A stretch of DNA of 64,000 nt from a virus (IMGVR_UViG_3300031088_000799), one strand, 5' to 3'; numbered from the stretch's first letter, positions 2,167 to 63,995 are shown. A program made the numbers and translations. Notes: generated by a model not told the origin, from the letters alone.

Positions 2167-3189
2167 TTAAATTGAAAGCATCCTATAAAGTAGAACAGAC
2201 TCATTACAAAATTCATCAGCATGAATATCTAATTTCGCAAGTAAGCGATCTTTTATAGTTTGAAAAATGTAATCATAGATAGCTTCATATCCAACAATAG
2301 TAACTGTATCACCTGATTCATAATCAAAACTAATATAAGTCAACTTATTCTCTTGATAACTAAACATGAGTTTATTTTCTAATTGAATAGAAGAATCGTA
2401 TAAAAAAAGAATTGCATATAAATTTGTAGGCAATGCAAATTTCAGTTCAGAAAGTTGATAATGTAACAACACATCATATTCAACTTTACCATACTGAAGG
2501 TAAGAATCGAAACGAAGCAACCCTTCAATAACTTTAATTTGTTTTAAAAGATTACGACTAAAAATATTAGGCAACGCTTTAAAAAAGATATCTGGTTTTT
2601 CACCATATCGTGACAAATTATCATCTATGTCTTCATTAGGAATATAAGTTAAATCAGAATTATTCAAATAAAGCACTCTCAAGGCATTCAAATCATTTTT
2701 ATCACGTATTTTAAACTCTTCAATTGTCATATTATTATCGATGTATTTTGAAAGTTCATTTAAAACAGATTCATAGCTACGATCAAAAGTTTCATCATCT
2801 ATAAAAAAATCATCTTCGAAATTAGCAGTAAATCCAACAAAAAACCTTCTAATGCCTGCAATATTTTGGCTAAAATACAAACTAATAACTTTACCGACTG
2901 AAACCGTGATATCATTATTTCTAGAAACAATAATTCTAAATAGTGTGTTATCTTTATTATATTCTTCATTAACATGATAAAGAAGATCAATTAATGATGC
3001 CATTTGTTTAATTTTTGAAATATTTTTTTTAGCATAGGCTGGATCAAAAAGAGAATTCAAGAATTGATAATCAACAAGACTTCTCTTAAAATGATAGATA
3101 AGAACCCCATCTTCATCCAGATGATAAATCGCATTATCTAAATTATAAAATTCTTTGATTTTAGTCATTATGTCAAACACAAGATTCAT
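2167..3189 (-). CDS. Hypothetical protein with C-terminal MxxI motif
   Basis: 340-aa ORF ending LLYRMLSI. Confidence 0.8.
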   Translation of the reverse strand: MNLVFDIMTKIKEFYNLDNAIYHLDEDGVLIYHFKRSLVDYQFLNSLFDPAYAKKNISKIKQMASLIDLLYHVNEEYNKDNTLFRIIVSRNNDITVSVGKVISLYFSQNIAGIRRFFVGFTANFEDDFFIDDETFDRSYESVLNELSKYIDNNMTIEEFKIRDKNDLNALRVLYLNNSDLTYIPNEDIDDNLSRYGEKPDIFFKALPNIFSRNLLKQIKVIEGLLRFDSYLQYGKVEYDVLLHYQLSELKFALPTNLYAILFLYDSSIQLENKLMFSYQENKLTYISFDYESGDTVTIVGYEAIYDYIFQTIKDRLLAKLDIHADEFCNESVLLYRMLSI

Positions 3190-3297
3190 TATTAAGCCTC
3201 AATGCTGATGAAAGTAAGCTATTATACCATAATTTAAAATGAATAGATAAAAAAAACCAACTATATCTCTATAATTGGTTTTAAATGATTACAAAAT

Positions 3298-4482
3298 TTA
3301 AGGTTTAAATTTAGCTTTCTTGACAGGGGTAGGAGCCGTCATCAATTTAACATCAATAACATTCAAACCCTTTTTACGGAAACCTTCGATTACACGATCA
3401 GTGTCATCATATACAGCTTCAACACGATCAAGACCAATATATTTTGAAATCCAAGCAGGTTTAATAATATAATCTGGCACTCGGTTTTCTGGACTACGCA
3501 ATTTAATACGATCATAACATACACCATGATCTTGCATGGATTTCAGTGTTTTATCCATAATACGATCTACGCGACCACTCATAAGCCAAATTTCATAACC
3601 TTTTTTACGATACTCTTTCGTCAAATCAATAACATGCTGAATAGGTGTGTCCAAATGGCATAAATCAAAGTAGTTATCCCAGTCCTTGACATCACGATAC
3701 TGAGCACGGTGACGTTCATCCATCAAAGTGCCATCAATATCAAATACAACAACTGGACGTAGTACTTCTTCTTTTTTGCAATCAAACACTTCACGCACAC
3801 CCTGATAATCACTTGCAAACAACTCATGTTTTTCAACTTTACGAACAGTTGCTTTCAAATAATCACCAAAATCAGCCCACATTTTTTGTAGAGCATCTAC
3901 TGGTTCGCCTTCTTTGCGTTGCAAATACCCACGCAATTCTGGATAATAATCAGCTACTGCACTTTTAGTAAACAGTTCAACATTATCTTCAAGCAATGCA
4001 CGGGTTTGACCTAACTGAAATGCAAAGAATTTGTAGGTTTCAACCAACGAAGTCTTTTGATAATCAGCCACATCACGCAAGTCAATAGAAGTTAATACAT
4101 CCAATTTAAAAGACATATCGGCAGACTGCAACGCTTTCTTCACTTCTTCACGTTTTTCAGTGCGAGAATGATAAGATAACAGACCACGAACAGTACGAAT
4201 CATTTTTAATGCATATGAGCGTGGCAATGCTGCAGTAATTGGGTTCTCTGCATCTTGTTTATGCAGGGCATAGGTTGCAAGAATAGAGTTGTTACATTCA
4301 TCCACAGTCCCCTTGTAACACCAGTTAACAACACCATCTTTTATGCTCAAAAGGTTAGCATTGACTTCCTTGAAAGAATCACAAAGTTTCTTTGCTTCTT
4401 GCATAGTAAGTGGTTCTGGAATAATGACATAAGCATCAATATCCAAAGAATCTTCTGAGCCGTGTTTAATTACTGGGTACAT
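3298..4482 (-). CDS. Nucleotidyltransferase-like domain fused to HAD phosphatase (T4 Pnkp phosphatase-like); Lys-rich tail
   Basis: N-terminal HGSEDSLDID (GS..DxD); C-terminal VVFDIDGTL, LMSGR, YDD HAD motifs; ends KKAKFKP. Confidence 0.7.
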   Translation of the reverse strand: MYPVIKHGSEDSLDIDAYVIIPEPLTMQEAKKLCDSFKEVNANLLSIKDGVVNWCYKGTVDECNNSILATYALHKQDAENPITAALPRSYALKMIRTVRGLLSYHSRTEKREEVKKALQSADMSFKLDVLTSIDLRDVADYQKTSLVETYKFFAFQLGQTRALLEDNVELFTKSAVADYYPELRGYLQRKEGEPVDALQKMWADFGDYLKATVRKVEKHELFASDYQGVREVFDCKKEEVLRPVVVFDIDGTLMDERHRAQYRDVKDWDNYFDLCHLDTPIQHVIDLTKEYRKKGYEIWLMSGRVDRIMDKTLKSMQDHGVCYDRIKLRSPENRVPDYIIKPAWISKYIGLDRVEAVYDDTDRVIEGFRKKGLNVIDVKLMTAPTPVKKAKFKP

Positions 4483-4556
4483 TGTTTTAACTCCTTAATT
4501 TATTTTAATATTGTAGCAAAAAAAGCTTGTTTGGTCAATCAATTCGTCATAGATCT

Positions 4557-5261
4557 TTAAATAATGATCATATCCAACAAAGCCAATTCAGAAGCACTTA
4601 AACTTTTATTTAAATCAATACGATCCAGTCCTTTCAATCGACCAACATCAGGATAAAGTTGTTTTAATTTAAAAAATTCAATAAATTTACCGGGAAAGTC
4701 TTCATTAAAATAAATAACCTGTAATGGCGTCATGGTTTTCAAATTAACCTTATATTTGATGGCATGCCATTTTTGTTTATTAAACGTATAGTCTTTTGTA
4801 TGTTTCGTAGATTGAATTTTAGAAAGATAAGAATACTCAACATTATCAATCAATACGAAAGGCGGGACATCGCCATTAACAATATAGTGCTCTTCAAAAA
4901 CTTTGCCATTACCATGATAACTAATATAAGCTGGTTTATTATCCTCACGATGATACAGATTTTTTGATGTCGAAATAAAATGTTTATTTATCATATAAGA
5001 AATGCCAGTACCCGATTTATCAGGATTGCTGAATGACACATAAACAGTGACATCTGATTCTGGTTCAATTAATTTATAAGTAATACCTTTAAAAGAACCA
5101 CCTCTAACACGATTTGCATTATCAATGAGTTTTACAAAACCAAAAGATTCAAGCATCAGCCCATCAGTTTCTGAAAAATCGGCTGCAAGTTGTAGAGTAT
5201 CATGTACAGAATACACAATTGACATGAATTCTTCTTTTGTGGTAAATGTACAAAATGCCAT
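4557..5261 (-). CDS. Hypothetical protein with one HREDxPA (MORN-like) unit and MxxI end
   Basis: LYHREDNKPAYISY..NG; ends LLDMIII. Confidence 0.7.
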   Translation of the reverse strand: MAFCTFTTKEEFMSIVYSVHDTLQLAADFSETDGLMLESFGFVKLIDNANRVRGGSFKGITYKLIEPESDVTVYVSFSNPDKSGTGISYMINKHFISTSKNLYHREDNKPAYISYHGNGKVFEEHYIVNGDVPPFVLIDNVEYSYLSKIQSTKHTKDYTFNKQKWHAIKYKVNLKTMTPLQVIYFNEDFPGKFIEFFKLKQLYPDVGRLKGLDRIDLNKSLSASELALLDMIII

Positions 5262-7855: not shown

Positions 7856-7879
7856 ATCTACTTTATTTGTAATTGATGT

Positions 7880-8938
7880 TTAAATTTTAACCATTTCAAT
7901 AAGTTGCATTTCTCTCTTTAGATCAGTAATTGGATGACCAAGTGTCTTTCCAAGATAAATAGTAAACAACTGTTGTAAAACATGAACGTCATGTTCAATA
8001 TCATCAGTACGTAACCATGTAAAGTTTTCTGATCGCTCTCGTATATCACCAAACAGAAACGCAATATTAAACGAACTTACTTGAATTTCAACAATATTAG
8101 AAATATACATTTCCAATTGTATATTACTCTGATTTATAGACTTAAAATTCATATTAACACAAGAAATCATTTTTAATCCAGTAAAATCAGGATTTTCTAA
8201 ATAACATTGAGTAATTGAACTATTTAAACACAGTACTTTATCTAAGATATTAAGTGATTCTATAAATTTCTGGCCTTCTTCAATAGAAACAATCGACTGG
8301 ATTGATTCATTAGTTATACTACGATCAGTATAAAAGTTTAATTGATGAACAAATGTCTCTAATATATTTTTGTTCTTAACATCAAATTTAAAATTTAAGG
8401 TGTCAGAAGCCGCTACAAAAGGATAAGCATGATCAATTGATAAAGTAATATTTGTGTCATCATAATTTAATTTAATGTTAATAACACGATCTGTGCCCCA
8501 AAGAGCAATATCATGATATAAACAAGACATAATATTTTGAATTAATTGGCTAGCCTCAAAATCTAAAAAAAGAAATTTCAATTTATCTAAATTACACACT
8601 TCAATTTTAATATGCTGATCAGTAAACAAATAAGTGTTGTTTTTAACCGCATCAATAACCAGTGCTGCATTAAAAGGTTGCTCTAAATCAAAAGTACATA
8701 AGCACGAATGTTTACTATGAATGTTTAAAGAAACAAGACTATCTTTCACATAAACCATGAATTGTATGAATAAATCGTCATCCTTACCTAACCTATATAA
8801 TTCTTTGTAAATTAGATTGCAGTATTCACTAAACAATGCATTGTGATCTTTACTTTGCTTATGCAAGATTAATGTCTTTAAACTAGACAAACCACTTTCA
8901 TACAATGTATTTGGACGAATTTTATTGAAACCTTTCAT
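7880..8938 (-). CDS. Hypothetical protein, YPF paralog family, MxxI end
   Basis: SIDHAYPF; ends LIEMVKI. Confidence 0.8.
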   Translation of the reverse strand: MKGFNKIRPNTLYESGLSSLKTLILHKQSKDHNALFSEYCNLIYKELYRLGKDDDLFIQFMVYVKDSLVSLNIHSKHSCLCTFDLEQPFNAALVIDAVKNNTYLFTDQHIKIEVCNLDKLKFLFLDFEASQLIQNIMSCLYHDIALWGTDRVINIKLNYDDTNITLSIDHAYPFVAASDTLNFKFDVKNKNILETFVHQLNFYTDRSITNESIQSIVSIEEGQKFIESLNILDKVLCLNSSITQCYLENPDFTGLKMISCVNMNFKSINQSNIQLEMYISNIVEIQVSSFNIAFLFGDIRERSENFTWLRTDDIEHDVHVLQQLFTIYLGKTLGHPITDLKREMQLIEMVKI

Positions 8939-8939
8939 A

Positions 8940-9773
8940 TTAAATAGACTCCATTTCTAACAAAAGAATTTCACTTTTTAAATCAGAGACTTCATCGTCC
9001 TTTTGTTTTTCAAAGAATGCTTTAATAAAATATTGAAACATAGTCAAATCACGATCAAAATTAGAAGAAGATGAAAACGTAAATTTATTAGATTCATTGA
9101 ATTCAACCGAAATAAAGTCAGCCTGAATATTAATATAAGCAAAAGATGAGCGAATAACAATGTAAGGTTCATCACTTTCTGTACTCAAAACACGAAAACT
9201 AAAAGGAGATGATTCTACTTTGACATTAGTGTATATTGTAGAGTTATTATAATAAGTGTTAATGAGTCTATTTTCAAAAAAGAAGGCACTATCAACAAGT
9301 CTGACATTACTCATCAATTTTCGACCATAATCAATATGAAGTGGTTTGATATCACTTAACATAAGCTCATTATCAAAGCTAATTGAACAATCCAAATAAA
9401 TCTCAATATCTTCTTTTGAGTTCCAATTATGGTTGTCACTATAAATATCAGACAATACTGCAGCCAAAGTTTCTATACTTGCTGGTCTATCAAAAGAAAA
9501 ATAAATATAAACAGGATCAACATAATAAGGATAGGATTTATCCAATTCAAGACTAACACCATAACTGTCTACAGCAAAATAAACATCAAGCTCATAATCT
9601 TCTCGGAAGACTAAAATATCATCAACCAGCAAATTCAAATAAGCCAACATTTTATTGTTTTTTTGTTTACTAACGTTTTCGACATTAACTGTTCTCAAAT
9701 CAGTCAACATTAATCGAGTGTGAGCATGATTATCAACCATGATAAGTTCAGGTTTTTTTCTAGATTTAGACAT
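8940..9773 (-). CDS. Hypothetical protein, YPF paralog family, MxxI end
   Basis: ELDKSYPY; ends LLEMESI. Confidence 0.8.
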   Translation of the reverse strand: MSKSRKKPELIMVDNHAHTRLMLTDLRTVNVENVSKQKNNKMLAYLNLLVDDILVFREDYELDVYFAVDSYGVSLELDKSYPYYVDPVYIYFSFDRPASIETLAAVLSDIYSDNHNWNSKEDIEIYLDCSISFDNELMLSDIKPLHIDYGRKLMSNVRLVDSAFFFENRLINTYYNNSTIYTNVKVESSPFSFRVLSTESDEPYIVIRSSFAYINIQADFISVEFNESNKFTFSSSSNFDRDLTMFQYFIKAFFEKQKDDEVSDLKSEILLLEMESI

Positions 9774-9822: not shown

Positions 9823-10602
9823 TTAAATATACTTCATTTTAAACAAAGTGATAAAATCTTGATAGCTACCCTCAATAACTTCACCAGAAGAATGTTTATA
9901 AAATAATTTAAAGATGGACTGCAAACAATCAATGTCCTCATCAATATGATTAGAAGAGACTTCAAAACTTAATGATTTCTTACCACAAGTTACATTGATA
10001 TGCTCACCATAGATTGAGAAATGAAACGGACCAAAATCGAATTGCACTTGTAAAACAATTTCTCCACCACAGACTATATCGAAAATAGAAGTGGTAAGAA
10101 TATTTTTATAATTAGGATTAAACGGATGTTGATGAATATGAAGACTAATTTCATTGTCATAAGATAAAGTGGCATCAATCACTTTTATTGCTTTAAAAAA
10201 GGCTGGTGCAGTAGTGATATCTAAAAATCTATGAGCCAACCCTGTTTGATGATTAGATAAATCACCATTATCTATAACACAATTTTCTATAATAGCAGAC
10301 AGGATTTCATTGGTCATTTTCTTTATTTCGCAGTCAAATTTAAACAAAATAGGCCGTTTAGACCGTTTTACAAAAGGATAAGATTCTTCAATACTGATGA
10401 TAAATGATGTGTAATCATAGTGACACGTCACATTGGTTTTTAAATAATCATGATGAACCATAACATCATCAATAAAAGCATTAAGAAAACCACGAATATT
10501 ATCAATTCTACTTTCTATACAAGCTCGTCCACGAAGATCAATATCTCTAAGATCTTCAAGGTTTATGTTGTAATTATTACCAACAATAATAGTTGTGGTC
10601 AT
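9823..10602 (-). CDS. Hypothetical protein, YPF paralog family, MxxI end
   Basis: SIEESYPF; ends LFKMKYI. Confidence 0.8.
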   Translation of the reverse strand: MTTTIIVGNNYNINLEDLRDIDLRGRACIESRIDNIRGFLNAFIDDVMVHHDYLKTNVTCHYDYTSFIISIEESYPFVKRSKRPILFKFDCEIKKMTNEILSAIIENCVIDNGDLSNHQTGLAHRFLDITTAPAFFKAIKVIDATLSYDNEISLHIHQHPFNPNYKNILTTSIFDIVCGGEIVLQVQFDFGPFHFSIYGEHINVTCGKKSLSFEVSSNHIDEDIDCLQSIFKLFYKHSSGEVIEGSYQDFITLFKMKYI

Positions 10603-11453
10603 ATTGCAATCATCTCCTGTAACGTAATCCAGCGAGGCAAATCATCATGTGTTGTATCATGTTGAACATTATAAAAACTTAAAAAGAACTTTGTAAATTT
10701 TTCTACATTAAAATCTAAAGGGTGTTCATGATTCAAATGAAATGTCATAGAATCATACAAATATTCAAATCGAACACTATTATCACCAACTTTAATATAA
10801 AAATCGTGATTGCTCAATGTTAATTCCAATTTATTAGTATTAAAACTCCTGAATTCAAAAATGGAAAAATCAGCTTCATCAACATAACAAAGCACATGAT
10901 ATTCACGGCTTCTGACCATGTTAGACAACTTACCATCAAATCCCATTGCTTTATCAATAACATCAAAAGTATACAGAGCGTTTAATGCTTCAATATGAAT
11001 CACTGGTTCCATTAAATTGTTCTCATCATTAGGCGTAAATCTATAAATACCATGTTTTTTTAAATCATCAAGTATAATAGCAATCAAATGACTGCCAATC
11101 ATATCAATAGGGATAGCTAAATTTAAATCGAATTCAACAAGTGAAATTGTTGTATTAGGTTGAAGCGGTCCAACAAATAATCTGTCTCGAACAGAACCAT
11201 CCTTCAGAAAGTCTAAAAAAGGATATGATTCATCAACAGAAACTATAAATGTATTATTCGAAATACGAATGTTCATTTCAGTTAGAACATTCTCACGCAT
11301 CCCTAAAATATCAGTAGCTAATAAATATAGAAATTTTGAAATTTTTTGTTCATTATTAAACGAAACGCCACTGACTGTAGCATTTAATAAATCTGATATC
11401 CATATTTTTTGCTTTCCCAATTTTAATTGAGATGGCAATTTTTCGTCTAACAT
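10599..11453 (-). CDS. Hypothetical protein, YPF paralog family, MxxI end
   Basis: SVDESYPF; ends LQEMIAI; 4-nt overlap with next gene. Confidence 0.8.
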   Translation of the reverse strand: MLDEKLPSQLKLGKQKIWISDLLNATVSGVSFNNEQKISKFLYLLATDILGMRENVLTEMNIRISNNTFIVSVDESYPFLDFLKDGSVRDRLFVGPLQPNTTISLVEFDLNLAIPIDMIGSHLIAIILDDLKKHGIYRFTPNDENNLMEPVIHIEALNALYTFDVIDKAMGFDGKLSNMVRSREYHVLCYVDEADFSIFEFRSFNTNKLELTLSNHDFYIKVGDNSVRFEYLYDSMTFHLNHEHPLDFNVEKFTKFFLSFYNVQHDTTHDDLPRWITLQEMIAI

Positions 11454-11777: not shown

Positions 11778-12224
11778 TTAATATTGTGTCATATACTGTA
11801 AATTATATTCATCAATAAACTGATCAATTCTATCAAAAGATCGTTTTAATTTAATATTAATAAGAGCAAGCAGCATTTGATAAAAGTCTTCCAATTCACT
11901 TTCAATGTTATCATCAGGTAAAGAAGTTTCAATTTGAACAGCAGTTGCACCATACAAACAAAAAATAGTTTCACTTTCAATGACAAATCTAAATGCGGAT
12001 GAAAACAACACAAAATTAGCAGTAGCCTCACTATCATCTATACTAATATCAAAACCATTCACAGAGTTCTCACTGAAATGTTGATCATTTTGATATAAAT
12101 CTAAACAGGCATTGTGAATGTGACCATTAGCTTTAAAAAGTTTATCAATAATCATAACATTTTTAAAAATTTCAGTAGGCCCATCATTTTCAAAATCAAC
12201 ACTATCGCCCATTGTCAGTCCCAC
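11778..12224 (-). CDS. Hypothetical protein, MxxI-variant end
   Basis: 148 aa; GAGG RBS; ends LQYMTQY. Confidence 0.7.
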   Translation of the reverse strand: MGLTMGDSVDFENDGPTEIFKNVMIIDKLFKANGHIHNACLDLYQNDQHFSENSVNGFDISIDDSEATANFVLFSSAFRFVIESETIFCLYGATAVQIETSLPDDNIESELEDFYQMLLALINIKLKRSFDRIDQFIDEYNLQYMTQY

Positions 12225-14767: not shown

Positions 14768-15124
14768 GAACTACTCCGCCCTGAAGGACGAAGTTTCTTG
14801 GGGTTTCGAAAACAATCCCAATCCCAATCGCTGACGTTCATTGTCAGCTTCAAATAAAGCTGTCAGCTTTATCTGCACGTTTTCTCTTTTCATTTTTGAT
14901 GGACTGTACTGTCCATCTTTCAATTGGTGAAAAGTGAACCGAAGAACTTCTTCGATTATTCTGTTTCTTATGTTTTTTGCTGCATTCTGATCTGCATCTT
15001 CATTATGACCACAGAAATTACAATGAAAACTTCTTCCTTGTCTAACTGTGTGTTCCACACAGTGACAGTTTGAACAGGTTTTCGATGTATAGCTTGGTGT
15101 GGTCAAATGAACCCGAATGCCTTT
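14767..15124 (-). mobile_element. tnpB: IS200/IS605-family remnant: tnpB 3' part plus right end
   Basis: KGIRVHLTTPSYTSKTCSNC..FHCNFCGH..DADQNAAKNI (zinc ribbon + RuvC-III); right-end-like GAAACTTCGTCCTTCAGGGCGGAGTAGTTCA; 5' part of tnpB and left end absent. Confidence 0.85.
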
Positions 15125-15253
15125 AATGATTTAAATACTACTTACACATATGTTTTAAACAAATTCCATGAAAGAATTTTAAAAACATGTGAAATCGATA
15201 GCAATATGATTTTAAAAGAACATTTAGATATTTGCCGAATGCACCTAATTTAA
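15125..15253 (+). pseudogene. 3' remnant of an MxxI-family gene
   Basis: Open frame NDLNTTYTYVLNKFHERILKTCEIDSNMILKEHLDICRMHLI-stop, abutting the truncated tnpB. Confidence 0.55.
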
Positions 15254-17356: not shown

Positions 17357-18043
17357 CTAGATATTAACAGCGGCAAATAAAAATTTAATTTCATCTGTCA
17401 ATTCTTGTTCAAAGTTAAATAATTCTTCTATTGTAGGTGTTAACACTGAAAGTTCATTCCATATACTCTTTAATGGTTCACCAGATTTAATAACACCATC
17501 AATCATCACTTCAATATATTTTAATTGTTTATTTTCAAAGTTAACAACAGACAAATAGAAATTACTATCAGAATTGATTTTTAAGTTAACTCTGTCTACA
17601 TTTACATAATAGGAAACTTGTTTTGTATTTCTATTTTCATCATAATAAATAAAATCATATTGAGATTCACGATAGAGAATTAAACTAGGGTTTTTAATGT
17701 CATTAGAGGATTGAATGCAATCTTTATTAGCATAAATATCTTCATGATTACTCAATTGATGAATGATTTCATCAGTTTTTAGAATTTTTGTTTTTTCACG
17801 TAAAGAATAACGTTTTGATTGAGAATCTTGTGGGCGTAATAAAACCAACAAAATATAATCATCTTCAATTTTGTAAAATTTAGGATTACGACTAAAAACT
17901 TTCATTTCAGCAGGTGTATATCTAATAAAACCTATTTCTTCAAACCAAGAAAAATTAGATTCATCAATACTGATAAAAATATCTTTTTGATAAACGATAT
18001 TTCTTAAATCCATTGCTGACTGGACAGTTCTTTCATAAGTCAT
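17357..18043 (-). CDS. Hypothetical protein, AxxI variant of the C-terminal motif
   Basis: 228 aa; ends EIKFLFAAVNI. Confidence 0.75.
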   Translation of the reverse strand: MTYERTVQSAMDLRNIVYQKDIFISIDESNFSWFEEIGFIRYTPAEMKVFSRNPKFYKIEDDYILLVLLRPQDSQSKRYSLREKTKILKTDEIIHQLSNHEDIYANKDCIQSSNDIKNPSLILYRESQYDFIYYDENRNTKQVSYYVNVDRVNLKINSDSNFYLSVVNFENKQLKYIEVMIDGVIKSGEPLKSIWNELSVLTPTIEELFNFEQELTDEIKFLFAAVNI

Positions 18044-26388: not shown

Positions 26389-26865
26389 TTAAATCTTTAA
26401 AAATGATAAATCGACTGTAACATCTTTCAACGAAACAATTTCCAGAACCGCTTTATCATAAAAATAATCGACTGTTCCTTTCTTTGTTTCATACAAGCCA
26501 CCAATATAACCGTCTTCAAAATAAATACCTAAAATACGAGTTTTCTGCTCATAAAATTTTTCAATATTTTTAGAAGGTGATGAGGTTACAAACACAATGT
26601 TAGCACGACCTATTTCTTCACCATCTTTAAAAAATGGACAAGAAATTTCAAAAGAGCAATTTTTTTTAAAACAATTCTTAACTCTTGATCCTAAAGTTTT
26701 GAAGGTAAATTCTTTGATACGTGGATCGGACGATGCCTGTTCATGGATAGTGTTATTATAGGAGTTAACAAGTAATTCATTATCTTTTTTAAATTGTTCA
26801 TATTTCAATGAATTTTTTTCTTTCTCGTTAAAAAATTCAGCCATCTGTTTTAGAAACTTTTTCAT
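26389..26865 (-). CDS. Hypothetical protein
   Basis: 158 aa; AGGTG RBS. Confidence 0.7.
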   Translation of the reverse strand: MKKFLKQMAEFFNEKEKNSLKYEQFKKDNELLVNSYNNTIHEQASSDPRIKEFTFKTLGSRVKNCFKKNCSFEISCPFFKDGEEIGRANIVFVTSSPSKNIEKFYEQKTRILGIYFEDGYIGGLYETKKGTVDYFYDKAVLEIVSLKDVTVDLSFLKI

Positions 26866-30027: not shown

Positions 30028-30726
30028 TTAAAAAACAAGCATCGTTAGTATTTTAATATTATCATCAAAATTTTCGTTGAATTTTTCAATATTTTCAAAT
30101 TGTTCTGTAATTTGGTTTTCAAATTGCGTTGAAATATAAGCTGTGGCTAGTAGATTCTCTGAATAATACTTTCCTTCGTATTTATTATCTAATGCTGCTA
30201 CTGAAAAGTAATTATATCTATATCCACAAGGCCCTTTTATCAGATCAAAAATAATACGGCATTCAGATGGTTCTGAACTGTGCATAGGAATCTGATAACC
30301 AATACTGACACTTTCTTTTTCACCACTTTTGCCATTAAATTCAAAATAAGTTGTATATACAAGAAAAATATTATTTTTATTGATGAATTTGAATTCAATT
30401 TCTTGGCTTATACGATCTATTTTATTGCGAAGCGGTTTAAAGTTTTTGTGATGAGTGTAATGATCAGAAAAATAATCATTAAAAAGTTGAACAAACTTCT
30501 GGTAACTGGTCAATGCTTCATTATGTAATCTTACAATCAAAGGATTTTCACATTTTCTAACAATAAAAGAATCTACTGCTGTTTTTCTTTTGAGATAGCC
30601 AAAGCCATCAACATAACAAAAGCCTGAATCCAAATCATTAGGAAAAGGAGAACCCTCAGATAGATTAAAAAAATTTTTAAAAAGAATATGCATACTGTTA
30701 CCTCTAGTTAACACACCATTATACAA
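30028..30726 (-). CDS. Hypothetical protein, MxxF variant end
   Basis: Ends IKILTMLVF; GAGG before MHIL. Confidence 0.75.
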   Translation of the reverse strand: MYNGVLTRGNSMHILFKNFFNLSEGSPFPNDLDSGFCYVDGFGYLKRKTAVDSFIVRKCENPLIVRLHNEALTSYQKFVQLFNDYFSDHYTHHKNFKPLRNKIDRISQEIEFKFINKNNIFLVYTTYFEFNGKSGEKESVSIGYQIPMHSSEPSECRIIFDLIKGPCGYRYNYFSVAALDNKYEGKYYSENLLATAYISTQFENQITEQFENIEKFNENFDDNIKILTMLVF

Positions 30727-40004: not shown

Positions 40005-40661
40005 TCAAATCGCAAACATTTCTTTTGTAATCATTGTGTTTTTCAAATCATCTACACGTTCATCAAATGTCTTATGTTGGCTATCATGCTCAAAAAATTC
40101 ATCAATTTTTGAAATGTAATTGGCATAATCGTTAATTAGATGTTCAGCAAACAGGCTAGCTGGAATCTCTACACCTGCATAATTTACTTTACCATCTGCA
40201 TGAACCATGACATAGGTTAAGCGTTCACCACTTGAAGAAGACACCCAAAACCCTACACTGGGCATATAAACGCTGTCAAAGCCATCATGAGAGCCTTCAA
40301 AGGCATAAATAACAAACTCTGTGACCTTGATGCGTGAAATATTTTTGTTATCCTTACTGACATCATATTGCAAACCATTAATGTCACGAATAGCATTGAA
40401 AATAAAGTCTACTACCTTCTTATCTCTGATGAAATGTTCGGTTAAACTTTGACTATTAGAGGTTAACGAGTAGTGGAAAGCACCTTTACCTGCTCCAATC
40501 AATGGACGGCGACTAACTTCTAACAAATCAGCGTCACAGAGAAAATAAGACTTATCACGGCCCTGCGTAAAACTGATTTTTGTATAGCCATAATTTGAAG
40601 TCAAGAAAGCTCCAATTTTTTTCTGAATGGATTTTTCAATTTTGCTGATTTCTTTCATCAT
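40005..40661 (-). CDS. Hypothetical protein, MxxI end
   Basis: Ends ITKEMFAI; AAGGTG RBS. Confidence 0.8.
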   Translation of the reverse strand: MMKEISKIEKSIQKKIGAFLTSNYGYTKISFTQGRDKSYFLCDADLLEVSRRPLIGAGKGAFHYSLTSNSQSLTEHFIRDKKVVDFIFNAIRDINGLQYDVSKDNKNISRIKVTEFVIYAFEGSHDGFDSVYMPSVGFWVSSSSGERLTYVMVHADGKVNYAGVEIPASLFAEHLINDYANYISKIDEFFEHDSQHKTFDERVDDLKNTMITKEMFAI

Positions 40662-42254: not shown

Positions 42255-42494
42255 ATATTTATTTCCTCATGTTCTGTTTTAGTGAAGCTATTATACCAAG
42301 AAACAACGTCAATATCAACACTTTTCTTTGGTTTAACAATCTTTTTCTAAAAATAATTGTATGGTTGTTGTGTAGGTTCCTAGTATATCATGCTCAAAAT
42401 AAAAAGGCAAAGACATTCCAGAAAAAGCTATTTAGCAGTCAAAAAAAAGCCCCTTTCGGGGCTTTGGCTTTCGCCAGTTACACACTCGACTGTG

Positions 42495-43802
42495 TTAGTT
42501 TTTGAGGCGTGCCGCGTTGAACTCGGTAGCCACAAGGTCAAACACTTTCTTGTCCATGTGGTTAGGCATCGGCATAACCTTGTAACGCTTCAACATCACA
42601 GTGATAATACCGAAGACGAACAACTCACGAGCGAAGTTCTCTTTTGCGAACAAGATGTAGTTTTCCATGCTTTTCACATAGGATTTCAACACTTTGTCAT
42701 ATTCGGTAGACTTATCACCTTTTTCTTTCTTAACTTCTTCCAACTTTGTTTTCATTTCTTTCAGTGCGTGAGAGCAATCGTTCGCAATGAAGTATTGTGC
42801 AGAAGTCTTGGCCTTGATGTTAACGCTGATTTTCTTACCATCAAGAATATCGCGGGCTTTTGGCAAGTCCATACCTTCTTTCACGAAACCAGCGAACTCG
42901 ACAGCAATACCGCTACCTACACAAGATGCAGCGATGACAGAAATGTCGTTTTCGTTGATTTTATCGTCATCATCGTAGACGTTAAACTCGTCACTTTCTT
43001 CTGCCAGAGTCTTAACCGCAACCACTGGTTGGTAGTCACCGTAAGCGGCATACAACGCCTTGCTCAACATTTCCCAAGAACGTGGAGTTGCGAACGCTTT
43101 TTCATCCGAAGACAACAGTTGGTCAACGTTGAAGTTCTGCAATTTGCTACCGTTCGAACCAATCGACAGGTAAGCCAACACGTAAGGGTGCATACCAGCC
43201 TCAGACGCGAAGTTCAGCCATTGTTCGGTGTTAACGTCCATCAAGTAGTGACGGAAACGGTTAGCCAGTGGCAAAGGCATGGAGTTAGTTACACCACCAT
43301 CCGATTCCAAGTTACCAGCCGCGAACACAACGTCTTTCGCACCCAATTCGAAGCAACCAATGCGACGGTCGTTGATGAACTGGTAAGCAGCAGCCATCGT
43401 AGCTGGCGAACCGGAGTTCAATTCGTCGAAGAAGAACGCAGTTGGTTTACCGTATTTATCCCATTGCTCTTTCGCACGGCGAAGGAAATCAGGCATTGCC
43501 CAAGCAACAGTAGTTTCTAGACCATCAACCCATTCCAACTCACCTTTTTCGTTCAAGATTTGAACCTTAGTGGCACGTTCTTGCTTCGCTGGCAGACCAC
43601 GAAGGTCAACGCTTTCGATTTGAGACAGGCGAATGTCTTCAAAGTGGAAACCCATACGCTCAACAAGAGCTTGCAGAATGCGAGACTTACCGATACCCGG
43701 ATTACCCCACACAAAGTATGGCGTTTGAGATTGGATGCAGTTCAGTGCATGTTTACGCAGTGCTTTTGGGGAAACTTTAATCATAGTGCTGTTAGTAGTC
43801 AT
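42495..43802 (-). CDS. MoxR-like AAA+ ATPase
   Basis: WGNPGIGKS Walker A, DIRLSQ..DLRGLP, FFDELN Walker B, AAGN, LANRF, TPRSW. Confidence 0.9.
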   Translation of the reverse strand: MTTNSTMIKVSPKALRKHALNCIQSQTPYFVWGNPGIGKSRILQALVERMGFHFEDIRLSQIESVDLRGLPAKQERATKVQILNEKGELEWVDGLETTVAWAMPDFLRRAKEQWDKYGKPTAFFFDELNSGSPATMAAAYQFINDRRIGCFELGAKDVVFAAGNLESDGGVTNSMPLPLANRFRHYLMDVNTEQWLNFASEAGMHPYVLAYLSIGSNGSKLQNFNVDQLLSSDEKAFATPRSWEMLSKALYAAYGDYQPVVAVKTLAEESDEFNVYDDDDKINENDISVIAASCVGSGIAVEFAGFVKEGMDLPKARDILDGKKISVNIKAKTSAQYFIANDCSHALKEMKTKLEEVKKEKGDKSTEYDKVLKSYVKSMENYILFAKENFARELFVFGIITVMLKRYKVMPMPNHMDKKVFDLVATEFNAARLKN

Positions 43803-46366: not shown

Positions 46367-47011
46367 TTATACTTTAATCATGTCCAAGACTGCAATAATA
46401 TCATCATCTACTTCTGTAACATCATAACCAACAATGCTTGAAATAACATCTTTATAAGCATTTAACATTGGAAATTTAACATCATCAGCTTTCTTATAGT
46501 TAACATGAATGTCAACAAATGATTGATGTTCCAGTTCTCTACCATCTAAATGAGTAATTTCATAGCTGGCATCAATAGGTTTCAAATGAATAAAAAACCT
46601 AAATGTGGTATAGCCTGTCTTAATACCTTCGCCTCGAACAATAAAAGCAAGACTATCAATATCAAACAGATCGTTATAATGAGGATTTAATTCGATTTCT
46701 AAAGAGGGTAATAAACTATCACAACTGTAAAATGTAAAATCTGAGTTTAAAATTTTTGAATATTTAATAAGTAACTTTCTTATTTTATTTAAAATGGATT
46801 TAGCTTTAATTTTTTTAATGTGATCTAAAAATAAAGCAGACAAGATTTCTGAATTGTCCAGCTTGCCAGTAGATACTGGTTCTTGAACGCTTGTGTGTTC
46901 ACGTAACAAAAAATAAGGATTGAAATTAGTTTTTTCAGGATTTAATCCAGTATCAGCTATTAACGTTTTAAAAGATTGATTAAATAATTTTCGTTTTTCA
47001 AAATAATCCAT
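46367..47011 (-). CDS. Hypothetical protein, MxxV variant end
   Basis: Ends IAVLDMIKV; GGAG RBS. Confidence 0.75.
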   Translation of the reverse strand: MDYFEKRKLFNQSFKTLIADTGLNPEKTNFNPYFLLREHTSVQEPVSTGKLDNSEILSALFLDHIKKIKAKSILNKIRKLLIKYSKILNSDFTFYSCDSLLPSLEIELNPHYNDLFDIDSLAFIVRGEGIKTGYTTFRFFIHLKPIDASYEITHLDGRELEHQSFVDIHVNYKKADDVKFPMLNAYKDVISSIVGYDVTEVDDDIIAVLDMIKV

Positions 47012-49330: not shown

Positions 49331-49897
49331 TTATATTCTGGCCATGGCTAATAAATCTAATTTATCGGATAGGGAAATATTAGCAGTATCAGTGTGAAAC
49401 GAAGCTAACTCATGCGTCACCATCCGATCAATATCCTTTTTGAGATCAAGTTTAGTTTGCGAATAAAAATCTACACTATTAACAAATAGAGAAGATTCTA
49501 AAAATGATATTTCTTTTGTTTTTTTGTTCATTTGAAAACTAATATTCATAATTGGACAGTAATGCATTATTTTCATTGATTTTAAAAATGCCACACATTT
49601 AATAACCAATGAAGTTTCATTTTTTAATAAATCACCATCAATCGATAATCCATATTTTAAGCCTTCTGGTGAGATACAATAATCAACTATACAAAAAATA
49701 GAATATTTTGTTTCTCTAAAACTAAAATTAATTAAATCTAAATTATGGCCGGGAACAGGATGTTCTTTTAAGATATAACTAACCGAATATTCTGACTCAG
49801 CATTTGGTTTATTTTTTTCAACATACGGTGCTGTAATTGTTACATTACAATATTTAAAAAAATGGTTAATTAATCGTTCATGATCTTGCATATACAC
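49331..49897 (-). CDS. Hypothetical protein, paralog of 49917-50480, MxxI end
   Basis: LINHFF, HYCPI; ends LDLLAMARI. Confidence 0.75.
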   Translation of the reverse strand: MYMQDHERLINHFFKYCNVTITAPYVEKNKPNAESEYSVSYILKEHPVPGHNLDLINFSFRETKYSIFCIVDYCISPEGLKYGLSIDGDLLKNETSLVIKCVAFLKSMKIMHYCPIMNISFQMNKKTKEISFLESSLFVNSVDFYSQTKLDLKKDIDRMVTHELASFHTDTANISLSDKLDLLAMARI

Positions 49898-49916: not shown

Positions 49917-50480
49917 TTAAATAGCCGCCATTAAATACATATCAATTAAATCAGTTAATGCAAGTTCCTCAACATTTATCTCCCAATCTTGCAAACGCTC
50001 TTTAATAATTGCAGTTACACAATCTTCTAATAAATGAAATGTAGTTCCATGAGTTCTAATTAAGTTGATACGATGATAAAAATCTTTTACCCATATTTTG
50101 TTTTCATTTGTATTCATTTCAATATTGAAACCAATAGCTGGATAATAATGCTTGATATTTAACTTATCTAAAACAGTAACACATTTTTGGCCTAATTTCA
50201 TTTTATTGTAAAAAAAATCATTACTAAATGTCATTCCATCTTTTGTTCCATTATCATAAATATAAGTAGCAGTCGCTAACAAATCACTCGTAGAGTTATC
50301 TTTCATCCGAAAATCAAATTTGATAATTTGATGTTTGCAAACATCATTACGTTTTTCACGAGGATCTACAATAAGAACAGTATCTCCTATAATATCCTGT
50401 TCGTGGAACGAAGTTAATTGAATATCTTGTGAGTTGAAAAAATAATCAATAATTTTTTGCTGATTATCCATAATTAACAC
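49917..50480 (-). CDS. Hypothetical protein, paralog of 49331-49897, MxxI end
   Basis: IIDYFF, HYYPA; ends DMYLMAAI. Confidence 0.75.
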   Translation of the reverse strand: MLIMDNQQKIIDYFFNSQDIQLTSFHEQDIIGDTVLIVDPREKRNDVCKHQIIKFDFRMKDNSTSDLLATATYIYDNGTKDGMTFSNDFFYNKMKLGQKCVTVLDKLNIKHYYPAIGFNIEMNTNENKIWVKDFYHRINLIRTHGTTFHLLEDCVTAIIKERLQDWEINVEELALTDLIDMYLMAAI

Positions 50481-55325: not shown

Positions 55326-55913
55326 TTAAATATTTTTCATCTCAACAACCGCATAATGCTTATCAAAATGTTTAATCAAATCCTCAATACTAGAAGCACT
55401 TGGAGCCACATTATCAGAAAACAATTTGAAACAAATCAATTCAAATAGAATTTGTTCACTGTTGACAATATCAGCTACGGAGCAAATTTTCTTGGTCATG
55501 CCTTTACTAGCAATAAGATAGCTTGTTACAGCATGATCTCTTTCCAAAAATTCAAGAAGAGTATTGCTTCGAACGCCAAAACTAAGACGTTGTTTTACAT
55601 AAAATACGCCAGCTCGCTCTTGGGCCTTTTCAAATTGTTCATGAAACACCTTATAAAACCAATGCTCATTCAAATTGTTCAAGCTAACAATAATTTTTGG
55701 TTCATTTTTAAGAAGGTCAAAAGAGATCTTGGCATCAATAAATTCAGGAGTGTTATCTTTTTTAGAAGTTTGCAAATAAACAGCATTGTCTCGATCATTA
55801 AAAGTAACTTGAACGAGTTCTAGTTTTAATACTGTTGCAAGATTTGTAAGGGAATTTCGAACCTGTTCAATTGTGTACAATTGGTTCTCTTTGTAATCTA
55901 TAATCTCAAACAT
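55326..55913 (-). CDS. Hypothetical protein, MxxI end
   Basis: Ends AVVEMKNI; AGGAG RBS. Confidence 0.8.
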   Translation of the reverse strand: MFEIIDYKENQLYTIEQVRNSLTNLATVLKLELVQVTFNDRDNAVYLQTSKKDNTPEFIDAKISFDLLKNEPKIIVSLNNLNEHWFYKVFHEQFEKAQERAGVFYVKQRLSFGVRSNTLLEFLERDHAVTSYLIASKGMTKKICSVADIVNSEQILFELICFKLFSDNVAPSASSIEDLIKHFDKHYAVVEMKNI

Positions 55914-59279: not shown

Positions 59280-60884
59280 TTACATTTCTTTTTTATTCAA
59301 ATATACATATTTAACAGGTTCTGTAGGTCGATATAATAATTTCAATGAGCTGAAACTATAACCACGTTCATGATTTAAATAATTTTTTTTGTCCAAAACA
59401 AAATCATTATAACCAAACACCATTGCTTCACCAGAGGTTTGATTTATTATGTAACGATATTTATAAAATTCTGGGAATTTTTTTAAATCATTCATAATTC
59501 TCAGCTTAATGATATCAGGAAGCTCTAAAAATTCACCTTTCATAATGATAAAGGTTTTTGATTGCTTAATTATATGCCGCATAAAATAGGTATCTCTATA
59601 AAAATCTTGTACTCCATAGATTACATTAATTGAATTTAAAGGTGTCTTAACTAAATGCTCAGCTAGTCTATTTGAAATAACAGTAGGAATATCATCAATA
59701 ATAATCGTTTGAGTATTTTCTCTATGTTCAAAATCTTTAATAACTTTATTTATATTTAACATTATTAAGTTAATTAGAGGCTCAGAAAAAGCCCAACCCA
59801 TTTTCTCTACTGCTGGAAATAATACGAATAATATTTTTTTCTGATAAAATGCTTTCTCTAAATTAATTTCTGGATGAATACTGAAAATATCTTTATAAAC
59901 ATTTAAACTTTCCATTGTTTGGAAAGCTATGTCACAATTTAATACATGAGCTTTTAACTGATTATCACTAACATCATCTAAGGTGTTCAAATAATCATCA
60001 ATATAAGGTCGAGCACAAGAAAAAAGTGGATCATCTCTAAAATTTTGAATATTTTTAAGAATCAAAAATGATTCAATATTTTCAATAGATACCAATCCAT
60101 TTTGTGATTTTACACACTTTGAAAACTCATGTAATAGTACACCAATTTTATCACCAAACAAAATTTTGAATGATTGTTCATCTCCAATTAACGGATTAAT
60201 TGGATCTATTGTATGAGAAATCTTAGTAGAAATTTCATGATGAGTATTTGAATTAAACAAATTCAAAAAATAGAAATCGTCTAACCTATTATGCTGTTTT
60301 GCTATACTAAACAGTTGCGTATAAATGGACGTATCTCCTTTTCCATCAATATACATTAAACCTTCACCATTCTCAACATATTGATGCGATAATCCAACAA
60401 AAGATGCAGTTTTACCAGACCCCGTAGATCCAGAACAAATTGCAGGATAGCTAGTTAAAGCCCATTGCTTTGATTTATTTAAAAATTTTTCTCTAATTGA
60501 ATAAAATTCTTTTGGTAAGAAATTACCTAAAGTAATAGGAATATGTTGTTTATCTTTGACGATTTTATAATTTTCTGTTCTGATAGGTTTTGGGTGAAAG
60601 AGAAAAGGAAGATCTCTCTCAAATAAATCGATATTATCTAACAAATTTTCTATTTCTTTTTTTCTGTCAACAGATGGATTGTTGTCTTGAATACCATCAC
60701 GTTTTTTTAATTCTTTTTCAAAAATATTCCAATTAGGATAACCATTAATATTGGCTATATGTTCTTTGGCGTGACTAAGATTGTTGATTGTTAAAGTAAA
60801 AGGTGGTGTATCGTTACTTTCATTTTTTTTGGCTAATTTTAATAAACGTGCAGCCTCACGCTTAGCTTGATCTAGCTGACTCAT
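59280..60884 (-). CDS. DotL/IcmO-like (TraD/TrwB family) P-loop ATPase with N-terminal Glyoxalase_8-like domain
   Basis: SGSTGSGKT, YIDGKGD, FYFLNLF, SHTIDP; N-terminal AKREAARLLK..AKEHIANINGYPNW. Confidence 0.6.
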   Translation of the reverse strand: MSQLDQAKREAARLLKLAKKNESNDTPPFTLTINNLSHAKEHIANINGYPNWNIFEKELKKRDGIQDNNPSVDRKKEIENLLDNIDLFERDLPFLFHPKPIRTENYKIVKDKQHIPITLGNFLPKEFYSIREKFLNKSKQWALTSYPAICSGSTGSGKTASFVGLSHQYVENGEGLMYIDGKGDTSIYTQLFSIAKQHNRLDDFYFLNLFNSNTHHEISTKISHTIDPINPLIGDEQSFKILFGDKIGVLLHEFSKCVKSQNGLVSIENIESFLILKNIQNFRDDPLFSCARPYIDDYLNTLDDVSDNQLKAHVLNCDIAFQTMESLNVYKDIFSIHPEINLEKAFYQKKILFVLFPAVEKMGWAFSEPLINLIMLNINKVIKDFEHRENTQTIIIDDIPTVISNRLAEHLVKTPLNSINVIYGVQDFYRDTYFMRHIIKQSKTFIIMKGEFLELPDIIKLRIMNDLKKFPEFYKYRYIINQTSGEAMVFGYNDFVLDKKNYLNHERGYSFSSLKLLYRPTEPVKYVYLNKKEM

Positions 60885-61654: not shown

Positions 61655-61742
61655 AACATAGGTTAAAAAAATTACAAGAATTGGCCTATCTTAGAGGTTT
61701 TTATTAAAAATTCAATAGATTTTTTTTTTATAATATGATTTA

Positions 61743-62558
61743 ATGAAAAGGATAATGAGGTCGCCTATGAATAATATTTTTAAAACCAATTTTAATATAG
61801 ACAACTTAATCAATTTTATTGATAAAAGTGTGCCTATGTTTTCTAACGATCCTATTATTAACAAAGGTACAGAAGGAATTAAAGAGTATGAATTTTATGA
61901 TATTAAATCACCATCCAATTTAAATCATTCAGTAATGAATATAAGGGTTTATTTAAATACTCGAAAAATATATTTTATTGGTAGAGATCAAACTGAGCTT
62001 TTAAAACTATTTAACCATTTTAATATAAACAAAATGGAAGAAGCTGATCTTTTTTCTATTACTAACACAATTAATAAAATTGGAGAAAAATATTGCATTT
62101 ATAATAAAGATAAAAATAAAAAACATGAAAAAAGAATAAAGCGTTTATTAAAAAATAGAAAAGAAGTCGTGCCAAAAGAATTCTTTAAAACAGTATATGA
62201 TATTGTAGGCGTATCAGGTAATAACGCATGGAGTAAACATGGACCAACCTATATTACACGACAATATTATATAATGGATGACAATAGTTTATCAGAATGG
62301 TATATCGTCAACTACCCCATTAGCCACAATTTTAAAGTGATTGTAAATGTAGCAAGGATCAATGAAAAATTGCATATTGCAGTTTCTTTTAAAGAAGGCG
62401 ATGATCTGATTAGGGTAAAGAACTTAAAAGAATTAGAAAAAATTATTGATGAAAAGTTTTTAACTATTTATCTATACCTTATGAAAAAACATTTTAAAAA
62501 TGAAATAAAAGAGTTTAATCAAGATGACATAACATTATTAAGGATGCTTAAAATATGA
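61743..62558 (+). CDS. Hypothetical protein, MxxI end (start probably MNNI)
   Basis: GAGG before internal ATG; ends ITLLRMLKI. Confidence 0.75.
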   Translation: MKRIMRSPMNNIFKTNFNIDNLINFIDKSVPMFSNDPIINKGTEGIKEYEFYDIKSPSNLNHSVMNIRVYLNTRKIYFIGRDQTELLKLFNHFNINKMEEADLFSITNTINKIGEKYCIYNKDKNKKHEKRIKRLLKNRKEVVPKEFFKTVYDIVGVSGNNAWSKHGPTYITRQYYIMDDNSLSEWYIVNYPISHNFKVIVNVARINEKLHIAVSFKEGDDLIRVKNLKELEKIIDEKFLTIYLYLMKKHFKNEIKEFNQDDITLLRMLKI

Positions 62559-62989
62559 AAGAATTAACAACTATAAATCCAAGATTAGAAAACGAAATCA
62601 TAGAACTAACTGAAGAAGGTAATATCTACCATGAGTCTAACCTGTATACCATTGCTATTGATACCTATCATGATGCATGGAATAAATTACCAGATGATAA
62701 ACAATGGAATTTTTTAACATATTGGATTGCTGGCTGTTTATTTCAAGTTTATTTTGATATACAAGAATATAAGACAGCTAAAGAATGGATTAAAATATCT
62801 ATTAAAGGTCAAACATCAAAAATAGATACAGGTGGTTTTATGGACTTAGGCATGGTTTGTTATGAACTCAATCAATTGGATGAAGCCTATCAAGCGTTTG
62901 ATGGAGCATTTAAACTTGGAAATAAAAGACCATTTCAAGAACATCCTAAGAAATATTTAACGTTTTATCTCGAACAAAAAGAAAAATAA
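62555..62989 (+). CDS. TPR-like helical protein
   Basis: LGMVCYELNQLDEAYQAF TPR-like helix; coupled to upstream stop. Confidence 0.6.
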   Translation: MKELTTINPRLENEIIELTEEGNIYHESNLYTIAIDTYHDAWNKLPDDKQWNFLTYWIAGCLFQVYFDIQEYKTAKEWIKISIKGQTSKIDTGGFMDLGMVCYELNQLDEAYQAFDGAFKLGNKRPFQEHPKKYLTFYLEQKEK

Positions 62990-62993
62990 CTGT

Positions 62994-63995
62994 TTAGATT
63001 TCATACATAGAAAGTAAAAGTAAAGTATCATCATTTAATGGCAACGTATCATCTATACCTAGTTTTTCCAATGTCGCATAGGTTTGTATAGAAGGATAAT
63101 AGGCACGACAATAGTTAATACGTTTATTGTAAACTTTTAAAAAGTTTTCTTTATATTGAAACATATCATTATCATCGAAAACAACTGATTTTTGTAAAAT
63201 ATGGCCTTTGCTGTAAGTGAATTCAAAAAATTTATTGGATTCAACAGCAGTGATTTTACGATCTTTCATATTATCGTTATCAAGATCAATAAAATCTTCA
63301 ACCAGTAACCTATAATTCAAGCCTTCTTTTATTAATAAGCAGGCATTATAGTTATGTTTCAATATTCTAACTTTCCGAGTGTCTATCATATTTCCATATT
63401 CATTCATCTTATCTTTTAAACAAGCAATTGAACTAAAATCACTAAAGCGACCAACTTCAAATAATTGATCATTTACCAAATAAAAATGTGCCCGACTAAC
63501 AGGTTTTTTTGAGGCTGATAATAAGCAAAATGTAACTTTATTTATATTTTTGATTACTGATTTTTTAACAATGGACACTTCTGGATAATAGATGTCATTG
63601 TAATATTGAATAGATGGAGCTTTCGGATCTAAAACACCACCTAAAAACATATTTAAAACATTAGGATGATTGGTAAAAATAGCCGTATATCGATTGCGTA
63701 AATAGGGAAATGTTCGTCTATCAAATCTAAAAAAGATATTGTCAGCCAATTGATCCAGCACAAACTGATGATTGGAAACTGATTCATCTGTTTTTTGTGT
63801 ACAATAGTTCATTGTGCTGCTGCTGCCTCTATCTTTAATGGTAACAAACATATAACCATCTTTAATGTCAATTTCTGCAAAAAGACCATTATGAGCTTCT
63901 GCAGTAAATATAGTATCCGTAATTTTCTTTACTCGAATTAATTCAGGAACTGATAATATATTTTTATTAAAGATAGATTTAAAAAAATTGATCAT
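62994..63995 (-). CDS. Hypothetical protein, MxxI end
   Basis: 333 aa ending LLLLSMYEI. Confidence 0.75.
   Translation of the reverse strand: MINFFKSIFNKNILSVPELIRVKKITDTIFTAEAHNGLFAEIDIKDGYMFVTIKDRGSSSTMNYCTQKTDESVSNHQFVLDQLADNIFFRFDRRTFPYLRNRYTAIFTNHPNVLNMFLGGVLDPKAPSIQYYNDIYYPEVSIVKKSVIKNINKVTFCLLSASKKPVSRAHFYLVNDQLFEVGRFSDFSSIACLKDKMNEYGNMIDTRKVRILKHNYNACLLIKEGLNYRLLVEDFIDLDNDNMKDRKITAVESNKFFEFTYSKGHILQKSVVFDDNDMFQYKENFLKVYNKRINYCRAYYPSIQTYATLEKLGIDDTLPLNDDTLLLLSMYEI

Follow-up and report, generated by a model that had tools for sequence, protein, structure and literature searches.

A recurrent C-terminal tail on fast-evolving orphan proteins of an uncultivated huge phage

Here we describe a short C-terminal tail, ending in Met, two variable residues and Ile directly before the stop codon (M-x-x-I-stop), that is carried by about a quarter of the genes in a 64-kb stretch of DNA from an uncultivated huge phage (IMGVR_UViG_3300031088_000799; the whole stretch of 64,000 nucleotides is called the window below). 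The proteins that bear it, which we call carriers and name by their lower coordinate, have fast-evolving bodies of unknown function. The shared ending had been pointed out earlier from the sequence alone, together with the proposal that it is a terminal recognition signal for one partner (the original prediction), and all the endings quoted there are present in the translated open reading frames (ORFs). The coordinates given for them were mostly right, although for the plus-strand ORFs 23394-24161 and 61743-62558 the tail lies at 24161 and 62558.

The tail and its carriers

Translation of the approximately 72 plausible genes in the window, a smaller number than the 80 or so first estimated, gives 15 full-length ORFs with the ending M-x-x-I-stop (Table 1). 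Three further carriers keep the Met and end in Tyr, Phe or Val (11778, 30028, 46367), two ORFs end in A-x-x-I (17357 and 23394), and with one truncated remnant the total comes to about 21. Carrier bodies are 148-352 aa long, with sizes that cluster near 190-230 aa, and only 37123 and 37812 contain transmembrane-like segments. The remnant, ORF 15107-15253, is probably the 3′ end of a disrupted carrier. Beside it, at 14771-15106, lies a fragment of an IS605-type TnpB (Cas12f1-like TNB domain), and one relative (L020) has an intact 360-aa TnpB at another place (117-1199).

Table 1. Carriers of the C-terminal tail, related candidates and two neighbouring genes considered as partners. Group numbers denote tandem paralogue groups.
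Coordinates	Strand	Feature	Length (aa)	Tail	Remark
2167..3189	-	carrier	340	LLYRMLSI	no Pfam or PHROG match
4557..5261	-	carrier	234	LLDMIII	M-x-x-I ending
7880..8938	-	carrier, group 1	352	LIEMVKI	
8940..9773	-	carrier, group 1	277	LLEMESI	AlphaFold: two domains, last helices 239-258 and 265-276
9823..10602	-	carrier, group 1	259	LFKMKYI	
10599..11453	-	carrier, group 1	284	LQEMIAI	TGA stop overlaps ATG of next gene
11778..12224	-	carrier variant	148	LQYMTQY	matches C-terminal domain of group 1 only
15107..15253	+	probable 3′ carrier remnant	48	LDICRMHLI	abuts TnpB fragment
17357..18043	-	probable degenerate carrier	228	LTDEIKFLFAAVNI	A at -4; third-best non-M score
23394..24161	+	probable degenerate carrier	255	LDLYFAYII	A at -4; score 8.6, within carrier range
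26389..26865	-	weak candidate	158	DLSFLKI	second-best non-M score
29347..29913	-	carrier	188	LIDMCFI	
30028..30726	-	carrier variant	232	ILTMLVF	
37123..37764	-	carrier, group 2	213	VLRMFKI	N-terminal membrane segments, C-terminal soluble part of ~110 aa
37812..38432	-	carrier, group 2	206	LVRMIRI	membrane segments
40005..40661	-	carrier	218	TKEMFAI	directly downstream of DUF2201 peptidase-VWA gene
46367..47011	-	carrier	214	VLDMIKV	orthologues end DM[IL]KI
49331..49897	-	carrier, group 3	188	LLAMARI	M-x-x-I ending
49917..50480	-	carrier, group 3	187	MYLMAAI	AlphaFold: pLDDT 91, last helices 151-166 and 175-185
55326..55913	-	carrier	195	VVEMKNI	
59280..60884	-	DotL/IcmO-like coupling-protein ATPase, soluble; candidate partner	534		PDB 6sz9_A
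61743..62558	+	carrier	271 (263 as called elsewhere)	LLRMLKI, at 62558	stop overlaps start of TPR gene
62555..62989	+	TPR-like protein; candidate partner	144		weak TPR_2 match, E 2e-4
62994..63995	-	carrier	333	LLSMYEI	same ending in three relatives

The ending is far too frequent for its composition. With Met at 2.8% and Ile at 8.0% of residues, 0.13 exact endings would be expected where 15 are found (binomial P ~6e-27), and the enrichment asserted in the original prediction is thereby confirmed. Among ORFs of at least 140 aa the exact ending occurs in 15 of 59-61, while of the 372 six-frame ORFs with lengths of 30-100 aa only 2 have it. A signal in the DNA, such as a terminator, a promoter or a start-stop overlap, might in principle translate as M-x-x-I, and in two cases (10599 and 61743) the sequence ATA-TGA does overlap the next ATG. 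However, the Leu codons, the Ile codons, the stop codons and the downstream DNA all differ among carriers, and the constraint must therefore act at the protein level; the ending is also kept in orthologues whose DNA has diverged. Chance and a nucleotide-level signal are ruled out on these grounds, and we give them next to no credence.

The signature is also longer than the bare M-x-x-I that was first described, an ending that is present but forms only part of it. Counted from the C-terminus, with -1 as the last residue before the stop, it takes up about 14 residues, with a D/S/N cap at -11, hydrophobic side chains at -9, -7 and -6, a Met at -4 and the final Ile at -1; the last three residues are variable-variable-Ile. 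Met stands at -4 in 18 of the 20 window carriers and in every orthologue examined. Among 18 carriers, position -7 is L in 12, V in three, and I and M in one each (17/18 L/V/I/M), -9 is hydrophobic in 17, -6 is mostly hydrophobic, and -11 is D in eight, S in two, N in two and E in one (13/18), a bias that suits a helix cap. A leave-group-out matrix that disregards positions -4 and -1 still separates carriers (mean -2.4) from the other ORFs (mean -13.4; P 1.3e-6), and the next-ranked ORFs without the Met are 23394, 26389 and 17357. The tail signature is thus real, hugely enriched and selected at the protein level. It had not been recognised as a described signal, and the literature that we searched holds no description of it.

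Divergence and kinship of the carriers

In the three blocks of relatives that are syntenic with the window (L006, L009 and L013), no genes evolve faster than the carriers, which share 36-65% identity with their orthologues against 56-93% for neighbouring genes. The tail is conserved while the bodies diverge, in support of the original prediction: the last 12 residues are 50-83% identical and the bodies 33-65%, with the tail above the body in most comparisons, and in 49331 a body of 33-34% identity precedes a tail of 75%. In the orthologous tails Met at -4 is invariant, Ile at -1 and Leu at -7 are nearly so, and the intervening positions vary; 46367 has a final V in the window, where the relatives have I. 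Endings of the M-x-x-I type number 4-6 per 13-20 kb in the relatives and are absent from distant loci. The 61743 family is unusually conserved (54-91% identity, tail invariant). Two further loci were inspected for a concerted change of tails in a more distant lineage, as tag-receptor co-evolution might produce, and were uninformative: L041 holds both a canonical (IIDMLII) and a variant (VGLLSI) tail, and L042 a lone degenerate member.

The earlier claim that the bodies share no visible core beyond local paralogue groups is also supported at the level of sequence: neither BLASTP nor hidden Markov models (HMMs) nor hhalign finds similarity across groups. BLASTP among carriers recovers only 7880/8940/9823/10599, 37123/37812 (E 7e-32) and 49331/49917, and 11778 joins the first of these by a tail-trimmed HMM (E 9e-5) and by the family HMM (E 5e-12). 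As far as sequence comparison reaches, the bodies are dissimilar outside these three groups. The demonstrable tandem paralogues are therefore 7880/8940/9823/10599/11778, 37123/37812 and 49331/49917, and within the arrays their identity has already fallen to 20-29%. When carriers were left out and scored on the 48-78 residues before the tail, they reached a median rank of 6.5-8 of 49, a weak signal that is perhaps partly one of composition.

The carriers are orphans. None of the 20 has a Pfam match, as against 20 of the 50 other ORFs (P 3e-4) and 11 of 28 others matched for size (P 1e-3), and no PHROG family was found for any of the ten carriers searched. The 7880 family has 35 representatives among 1.84 billion proteins, the 49331/49917 family 17 proteins (15 beyond the window's own two) and the 61743 family 20 in the database search, and nearly all database members of these three families keep the tail. 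No match to the 49331/49917 family came from GTDB species genomes, IMG/VR or GenBank phages, a search of IMG/VR with 7880 gave just two marginal partial matches, and profile searches of PDB sequences gave none. A feature search of the ESM Atlas scored 0.75 to an 'antirestriction' cluster, which is below the useful range.

Genomic setting

The replicon is accepted as an uncultivated huge phage of roughly 520 kb, with one caveat given below. A contig of 520,353 bp carries the window's proteins. The gene at 5409 (793 aa) has a match to phrog_33734 (E 2e-142), and its product shares 45% identity with proteins of two Xanthomonas jumbo phages, XacN1 and Xoo-sp13. The window also has two MoxR-type AAA genes, each paired with a DUF2201 metallopeptidase(-VWA) gene, a pairing that Iyer et al. 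(2021, PMC7824862) describe as characteristic of jumbo phages of group 2.2. Further genes encode DnaK, GltX, NUDIX, NADAR, R2K ATP-grasp and DEDDh proteins, and Phage_T4_Y00F is present in relatives. The caveat is that one syntenic block sits on a 1.84-Mb contig: L013 is ENA contig k141_522346 (1,843,594 bp), whose block at 818-839 kb is syntenic with 42-59 kb of the window, and a near-identical protein also occurs on a 1.92-Mb contig. Both far exceed any described phage; misassembly, concatemer formation or some other cause could account for this.

The tail set is specific to its lineage, given that in the full genome of XacN1 only one of 411 ORFs has an M-x-x-I ending and that three carrier families searched there have no match; of the 72 window genes, only 4 have a homologue in XacN1. 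A megablast search of plasmids and phages found no match to the window's first 25 kb. Public runs that hold window DNA are mostly phyllosphere metagenomes, together with several single-organism sequencing projects, and no RNA run is among those listed.

The first of the MoxR-type AAA and DUF2201 metallopeptidase-VWA pairs lies in a GC-rich island at 40764-43802 (42% against about 31%), with an AAA gene 88-89% identical to that of relatives, and the second, diverged pair (47480 DUF2201_N; 50533 AAA-BRCT fusion) flanks carriers 49331 and 49917 in a conserved order. Between the orthologues of 46367 and 45869 the relatives have a 433-aa chemoreceptor-like gene with PAS and MCP-signal domains (L006 14660-15961, L009 14723-16024, L013 14715-16016), and in the window this site is just a gap of some 115 bp. 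Three DEDDh_C paralogues (DNA polymerase III epsilon-like C-terminal) on the minus strand, at 24170-25186, 32822-33799 and 33865-34914, all lack the tail.

Predicted structure, candidate partners and readings of the tail

AlphaFold models of the 49917 family (pLDDT 91) and the 8940 family (pLDDT 79), two groups that look unrelated, have a common C-terminal layout, in which a beta-meander is followed by a helix of 16-20 residues, a loop of 6-8 residues and a terminal helix of 11-12 residues with a pLDDT of 76-92. In both models the tail is predicted to be an ordered part of an alpha/beta domain and therefore no floating peptide. This weakens the original prediction, for most known C-terminal sorting signals and degrons are peptides on flexible linkers. 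The MAM33/p32 fold consists of an N-terminal helix, a seven-stranded sheet and two C-terminal helices. As an identity for the 49917 model it is not supported (Foldseek E 0.03-0.1, TM ~0.2, no match to PF02330).

We favour the reading, over which we are evenly divided, that the carriers form one lineage-restricted and fast-diverging family of orphans, or a small number of them, in which the terminal helix has been kept as a shared interface. Most carriers would go back to a single ancestral protein or a handful of them, with bodies that diverged past recognition by sequence; the set multiplies by tandem duplication, and the terminal helix would be retained as a working surface. One side of this helix may pack on the protein's own last long helix, while the other side and the exposed C-terminus may contact a common partner or other members of the family, so that the variable bodies, probably modules of host interaction or counter-defence, would all connect to a common hub. 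The orphan status of all carriers, their narrow size range, the tandem growth and the 20-29% identity within arrays fit one diverged family, or a few, better than an added tag. Family-like, too, are the distant members of the 7880 family, in which a C-terminal helix stands at the same position with a degenerate motif.

Expansions of this general kind are known from jumbo phages, as Bacillus phage G has about 35 copies of a zinc ribbon in a lineage-specific expansion (Iyer et al. 2021, PMC7824862). The likeness lies in the huge genome, the many copies, the tandem arrays, the unknown function and the restriction to one lineage. The jumbo-phage expansions, however, keep a whole small domain recognisable, whereas here only the last 14 or so residues are common and the groups are unlinked by profiles, and the survey (PMC7824862) makes no mention of the carrier family. 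The MAX effectors of fungi are a family whose members are unrelated in sequence and related in structure (PMC4624222). They too are large, fast-evolving orphan repertoires with a kinship invisible in sequence, but they have a common fold without a conserved terminal motif, whereas among the carriers two models agree in their C-terminal arrangement only.

Several observations weigh against a single diverged family with a docking helix. Sequence comparison does not demonstrate common ancestry of the groups: hhalign between the two best-sampled families gives a probability of 0.2% with or without the tails, three deep family HMMs match only their own group in the window even with the tail on, cross-validation on full-length tail-trimmed sequences is not significant, and inter-group phmmer scores exceed those of carriers to decoys by only about 1 bit. 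The 61743 family stands apart in its much stronger conservation, its larger size and its basic character, and may represent a separate protein that gained the tail. Weak structural matches place an alpha-beta-alpha sandwich just before the tail in 8940 and in the N-terminal 134 residues in 49917, so that the two models do not establish a common fold and the bodies may be out of register. The packing of the terminal helix was read from model confidence values only, the near-invariant Met exceeds what core packing usually demands, and no partner or receptor for the tail, such as the original prediction had posited, was found.

Without any common partner, the tail might be purely structural, a capping helix that is the best-conserved core of one diverged fold, with each paralogue acting alone. 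The helix is ordered in both models, its hydrophobic residues occupy more than one face (-9, -7, -6, -4 and -1), which suggests burial, and distant homologues accept L, I or A for the Met and L, V, F or Y for the Ile. In a core at this divergence, however, L, I, V, M and F usually interchange freely, and a Met as strictly kept as this one is not expected there. In these proteins, whose bodies have no remaining similarity, the tail is also the best-conserved part, and the chain always stops directly after the last hydrophobic residue. We therefore consider a purely structural role improbable.

Alternatively, the tail could be a portable address tag, a C-terminal helix gained by unrelated proteins and recognised by one receptor, for translocation (by a DotL-like ATPase, for example), capsid loading, delivery to a TPR receptor or chaperone, or proteolysis. 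The absence of any profile-level likeness between the bodies is what such a tag would give, soluble proteins, membrane proteins and one well-conserved family all have the tail, and both the Met at -4 and the chain end immediately behind the Ile are strictly conserved, as a reading of the carboxylate would predict. Against this, both models show the tail as an ordered helix on a short loop, unlike a flexible peptide; recognisable domains are missing from every carrier, which would be odd for a freely movable tag; and tandem duplication is a simpler account of its spread. The two polytopic membrane carriers make capsid loading or export unlikely as a general role. A portable tag stands ahead of the purely structural helix in our estimation, and is nevertheless unlikely.

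Two genes beside carriers in conserved synteny lend this alternative its candidate receptors. The ATPase at 59280-60884 matches Legionella IcmO/DotL (E 2e-12) around the Walker A motif only, has no membrane segment, and belongs with about 30 metagenome homologue clusters, none of which has a Pfam family, with distant matches to coupling proteins of the TrwB/TraG type; an ATPase like a type IV coupling protein but without a membrane anchor is unusual in a phage. Three close relatives keep the order ATPase, a gene of 188-198 aa, carrier 61743, a 4-nt overlap, the TPR-like gene and more carriers. The overlap (ATGA) of carrier 61743 and the TPR-like gene is found in four genomes (window 61743-62989, L018 2208-3466, L019 10001-11244, L020 10001-11229), among which the TPR-like protein is 72-75% identical. 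The tail and the ATPase thus co-occur in close relatives, but in two distant lineages that have the ATPase (L016 and L017, 33-37% identical) there are neither tails nor a TPR homologue nor a carrier family within 10 kb, and this may tell against the ATPase as one of the partners originally suggested. A predicted complex of the 61743 family with the TPR-like protein (score 0.01, mark 0.32) speaks neither for nor against binding. Near its DotL-like ATPase, L016 also has an autoinducer synthase beside a LuxR-type receptor gene (7876-9173), on a huge-phage-like contig with a GC content of 26%. That the tail is a phage-encoded address label, L-x-x-M-x-x-I-COOH, by which a quarter or more of the accessory proteins of this huge-phage lineage are recognised by one phage-encoded receptor and sorted, translocated or assembled together, with the DotL-like ATPase or the TPR-like protein as the candidate receptor, seems to us doubtful, more so than either the portable tag in general or the structural helix.

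Known C-terminal signals offer partial likenesses. In the Dot/Icm type IVB system a C-terminal effector signal is read via the coupling protein DotL (IcmO) and adaptors. As in the carriers, the signal is C-terminal, has acidic residues upstream and hydrophobic ones near the end, and sits on hundreds of dissimilar fast-evolving proteins, and the acidic residues at -8 to -11 of the carrier tail recall its Glu-rich block. The Dot/Icm signal, however, lies in the disordered C-terminal 20-35 residues, whereas the carrier tail is modelled as ordered; here, moreover, the ATPase has no membrane anchor, the Met and Ile are fixed, and Pfam scans of the window found no other Dot/Icm families. The peroxisomal signal PTS1 (-SKL) is read by the TPR domain of PEX5, and -KDEL directs retrieval to the endoplasmic reticulum (ER). 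They share with the tail a free C-terminal carboxylate as a common label, and a TPR-like gene is coupled to one carrier, but consensus and length differ and the carrier tail is helical, not extended. The PTS1 tripeptide [SAC]-[KRH]-[LM] itself is not matched, carrier endings being variable-variable-Ile. ClpX reads C-terminal degrons such as ssrA (-LAA) and MuA (-RRKKAI), in which an unstructured C-terminus ends in LAA or in a basic stretch followed by A-I. The tail does not fit this pattern either: it is helical in the models, no carrier ends in -LAA, and K or R occupies -2 or -5 in some carriers only.

Cargo-loading peptides of encapsulins and encapsulation helices of bacterial microcompartments (BMC) dock cargo to an HK97-fold or BMC shell. 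They are also short C-terminal elements, and amphipathic helices in the case of microcompartments, but they sit on flexible linkers and accompany shell genes, whereas the carrier loop has 6-8 residues, and none of the approximately 70 window ORFs scanned belongs to an encapsulin or BMC family. Phage T4 has a capsid-targeting sequence on its internal proteins, and giant phages such as SPN3US package or eject sets of proteins (PMC5694885, PMC10052503). Here too a short phage-encoded signal is common to otherwise different proteins, in large phages related to T4. The T4 signal, however, is N-terminal and is removed after L/I-x-E, whereas the carrier tail is C-terminal and occurs on membrane proteins as well. 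A T4-type prohead-protease site within the tail was rejected, since only 5 of 18 carriers have L-x-E at -7 to -5, which also weighs against a portable tag read by such a protease.

Genes of unknown function take up a large part of huge-phage genomes, and the tail provides a handle for classifying some of them. The tail peptide, or mutants of it, could reveal a hub for dozens of phage proteins. If the tail is an address label, it would represent a new kind of phage protein sorting and the first C-terminal sorting system described for bacteriophage; if it is instead the relic of a single family, the carriers would be a viral multigene family that has diverged until only an interface survives.

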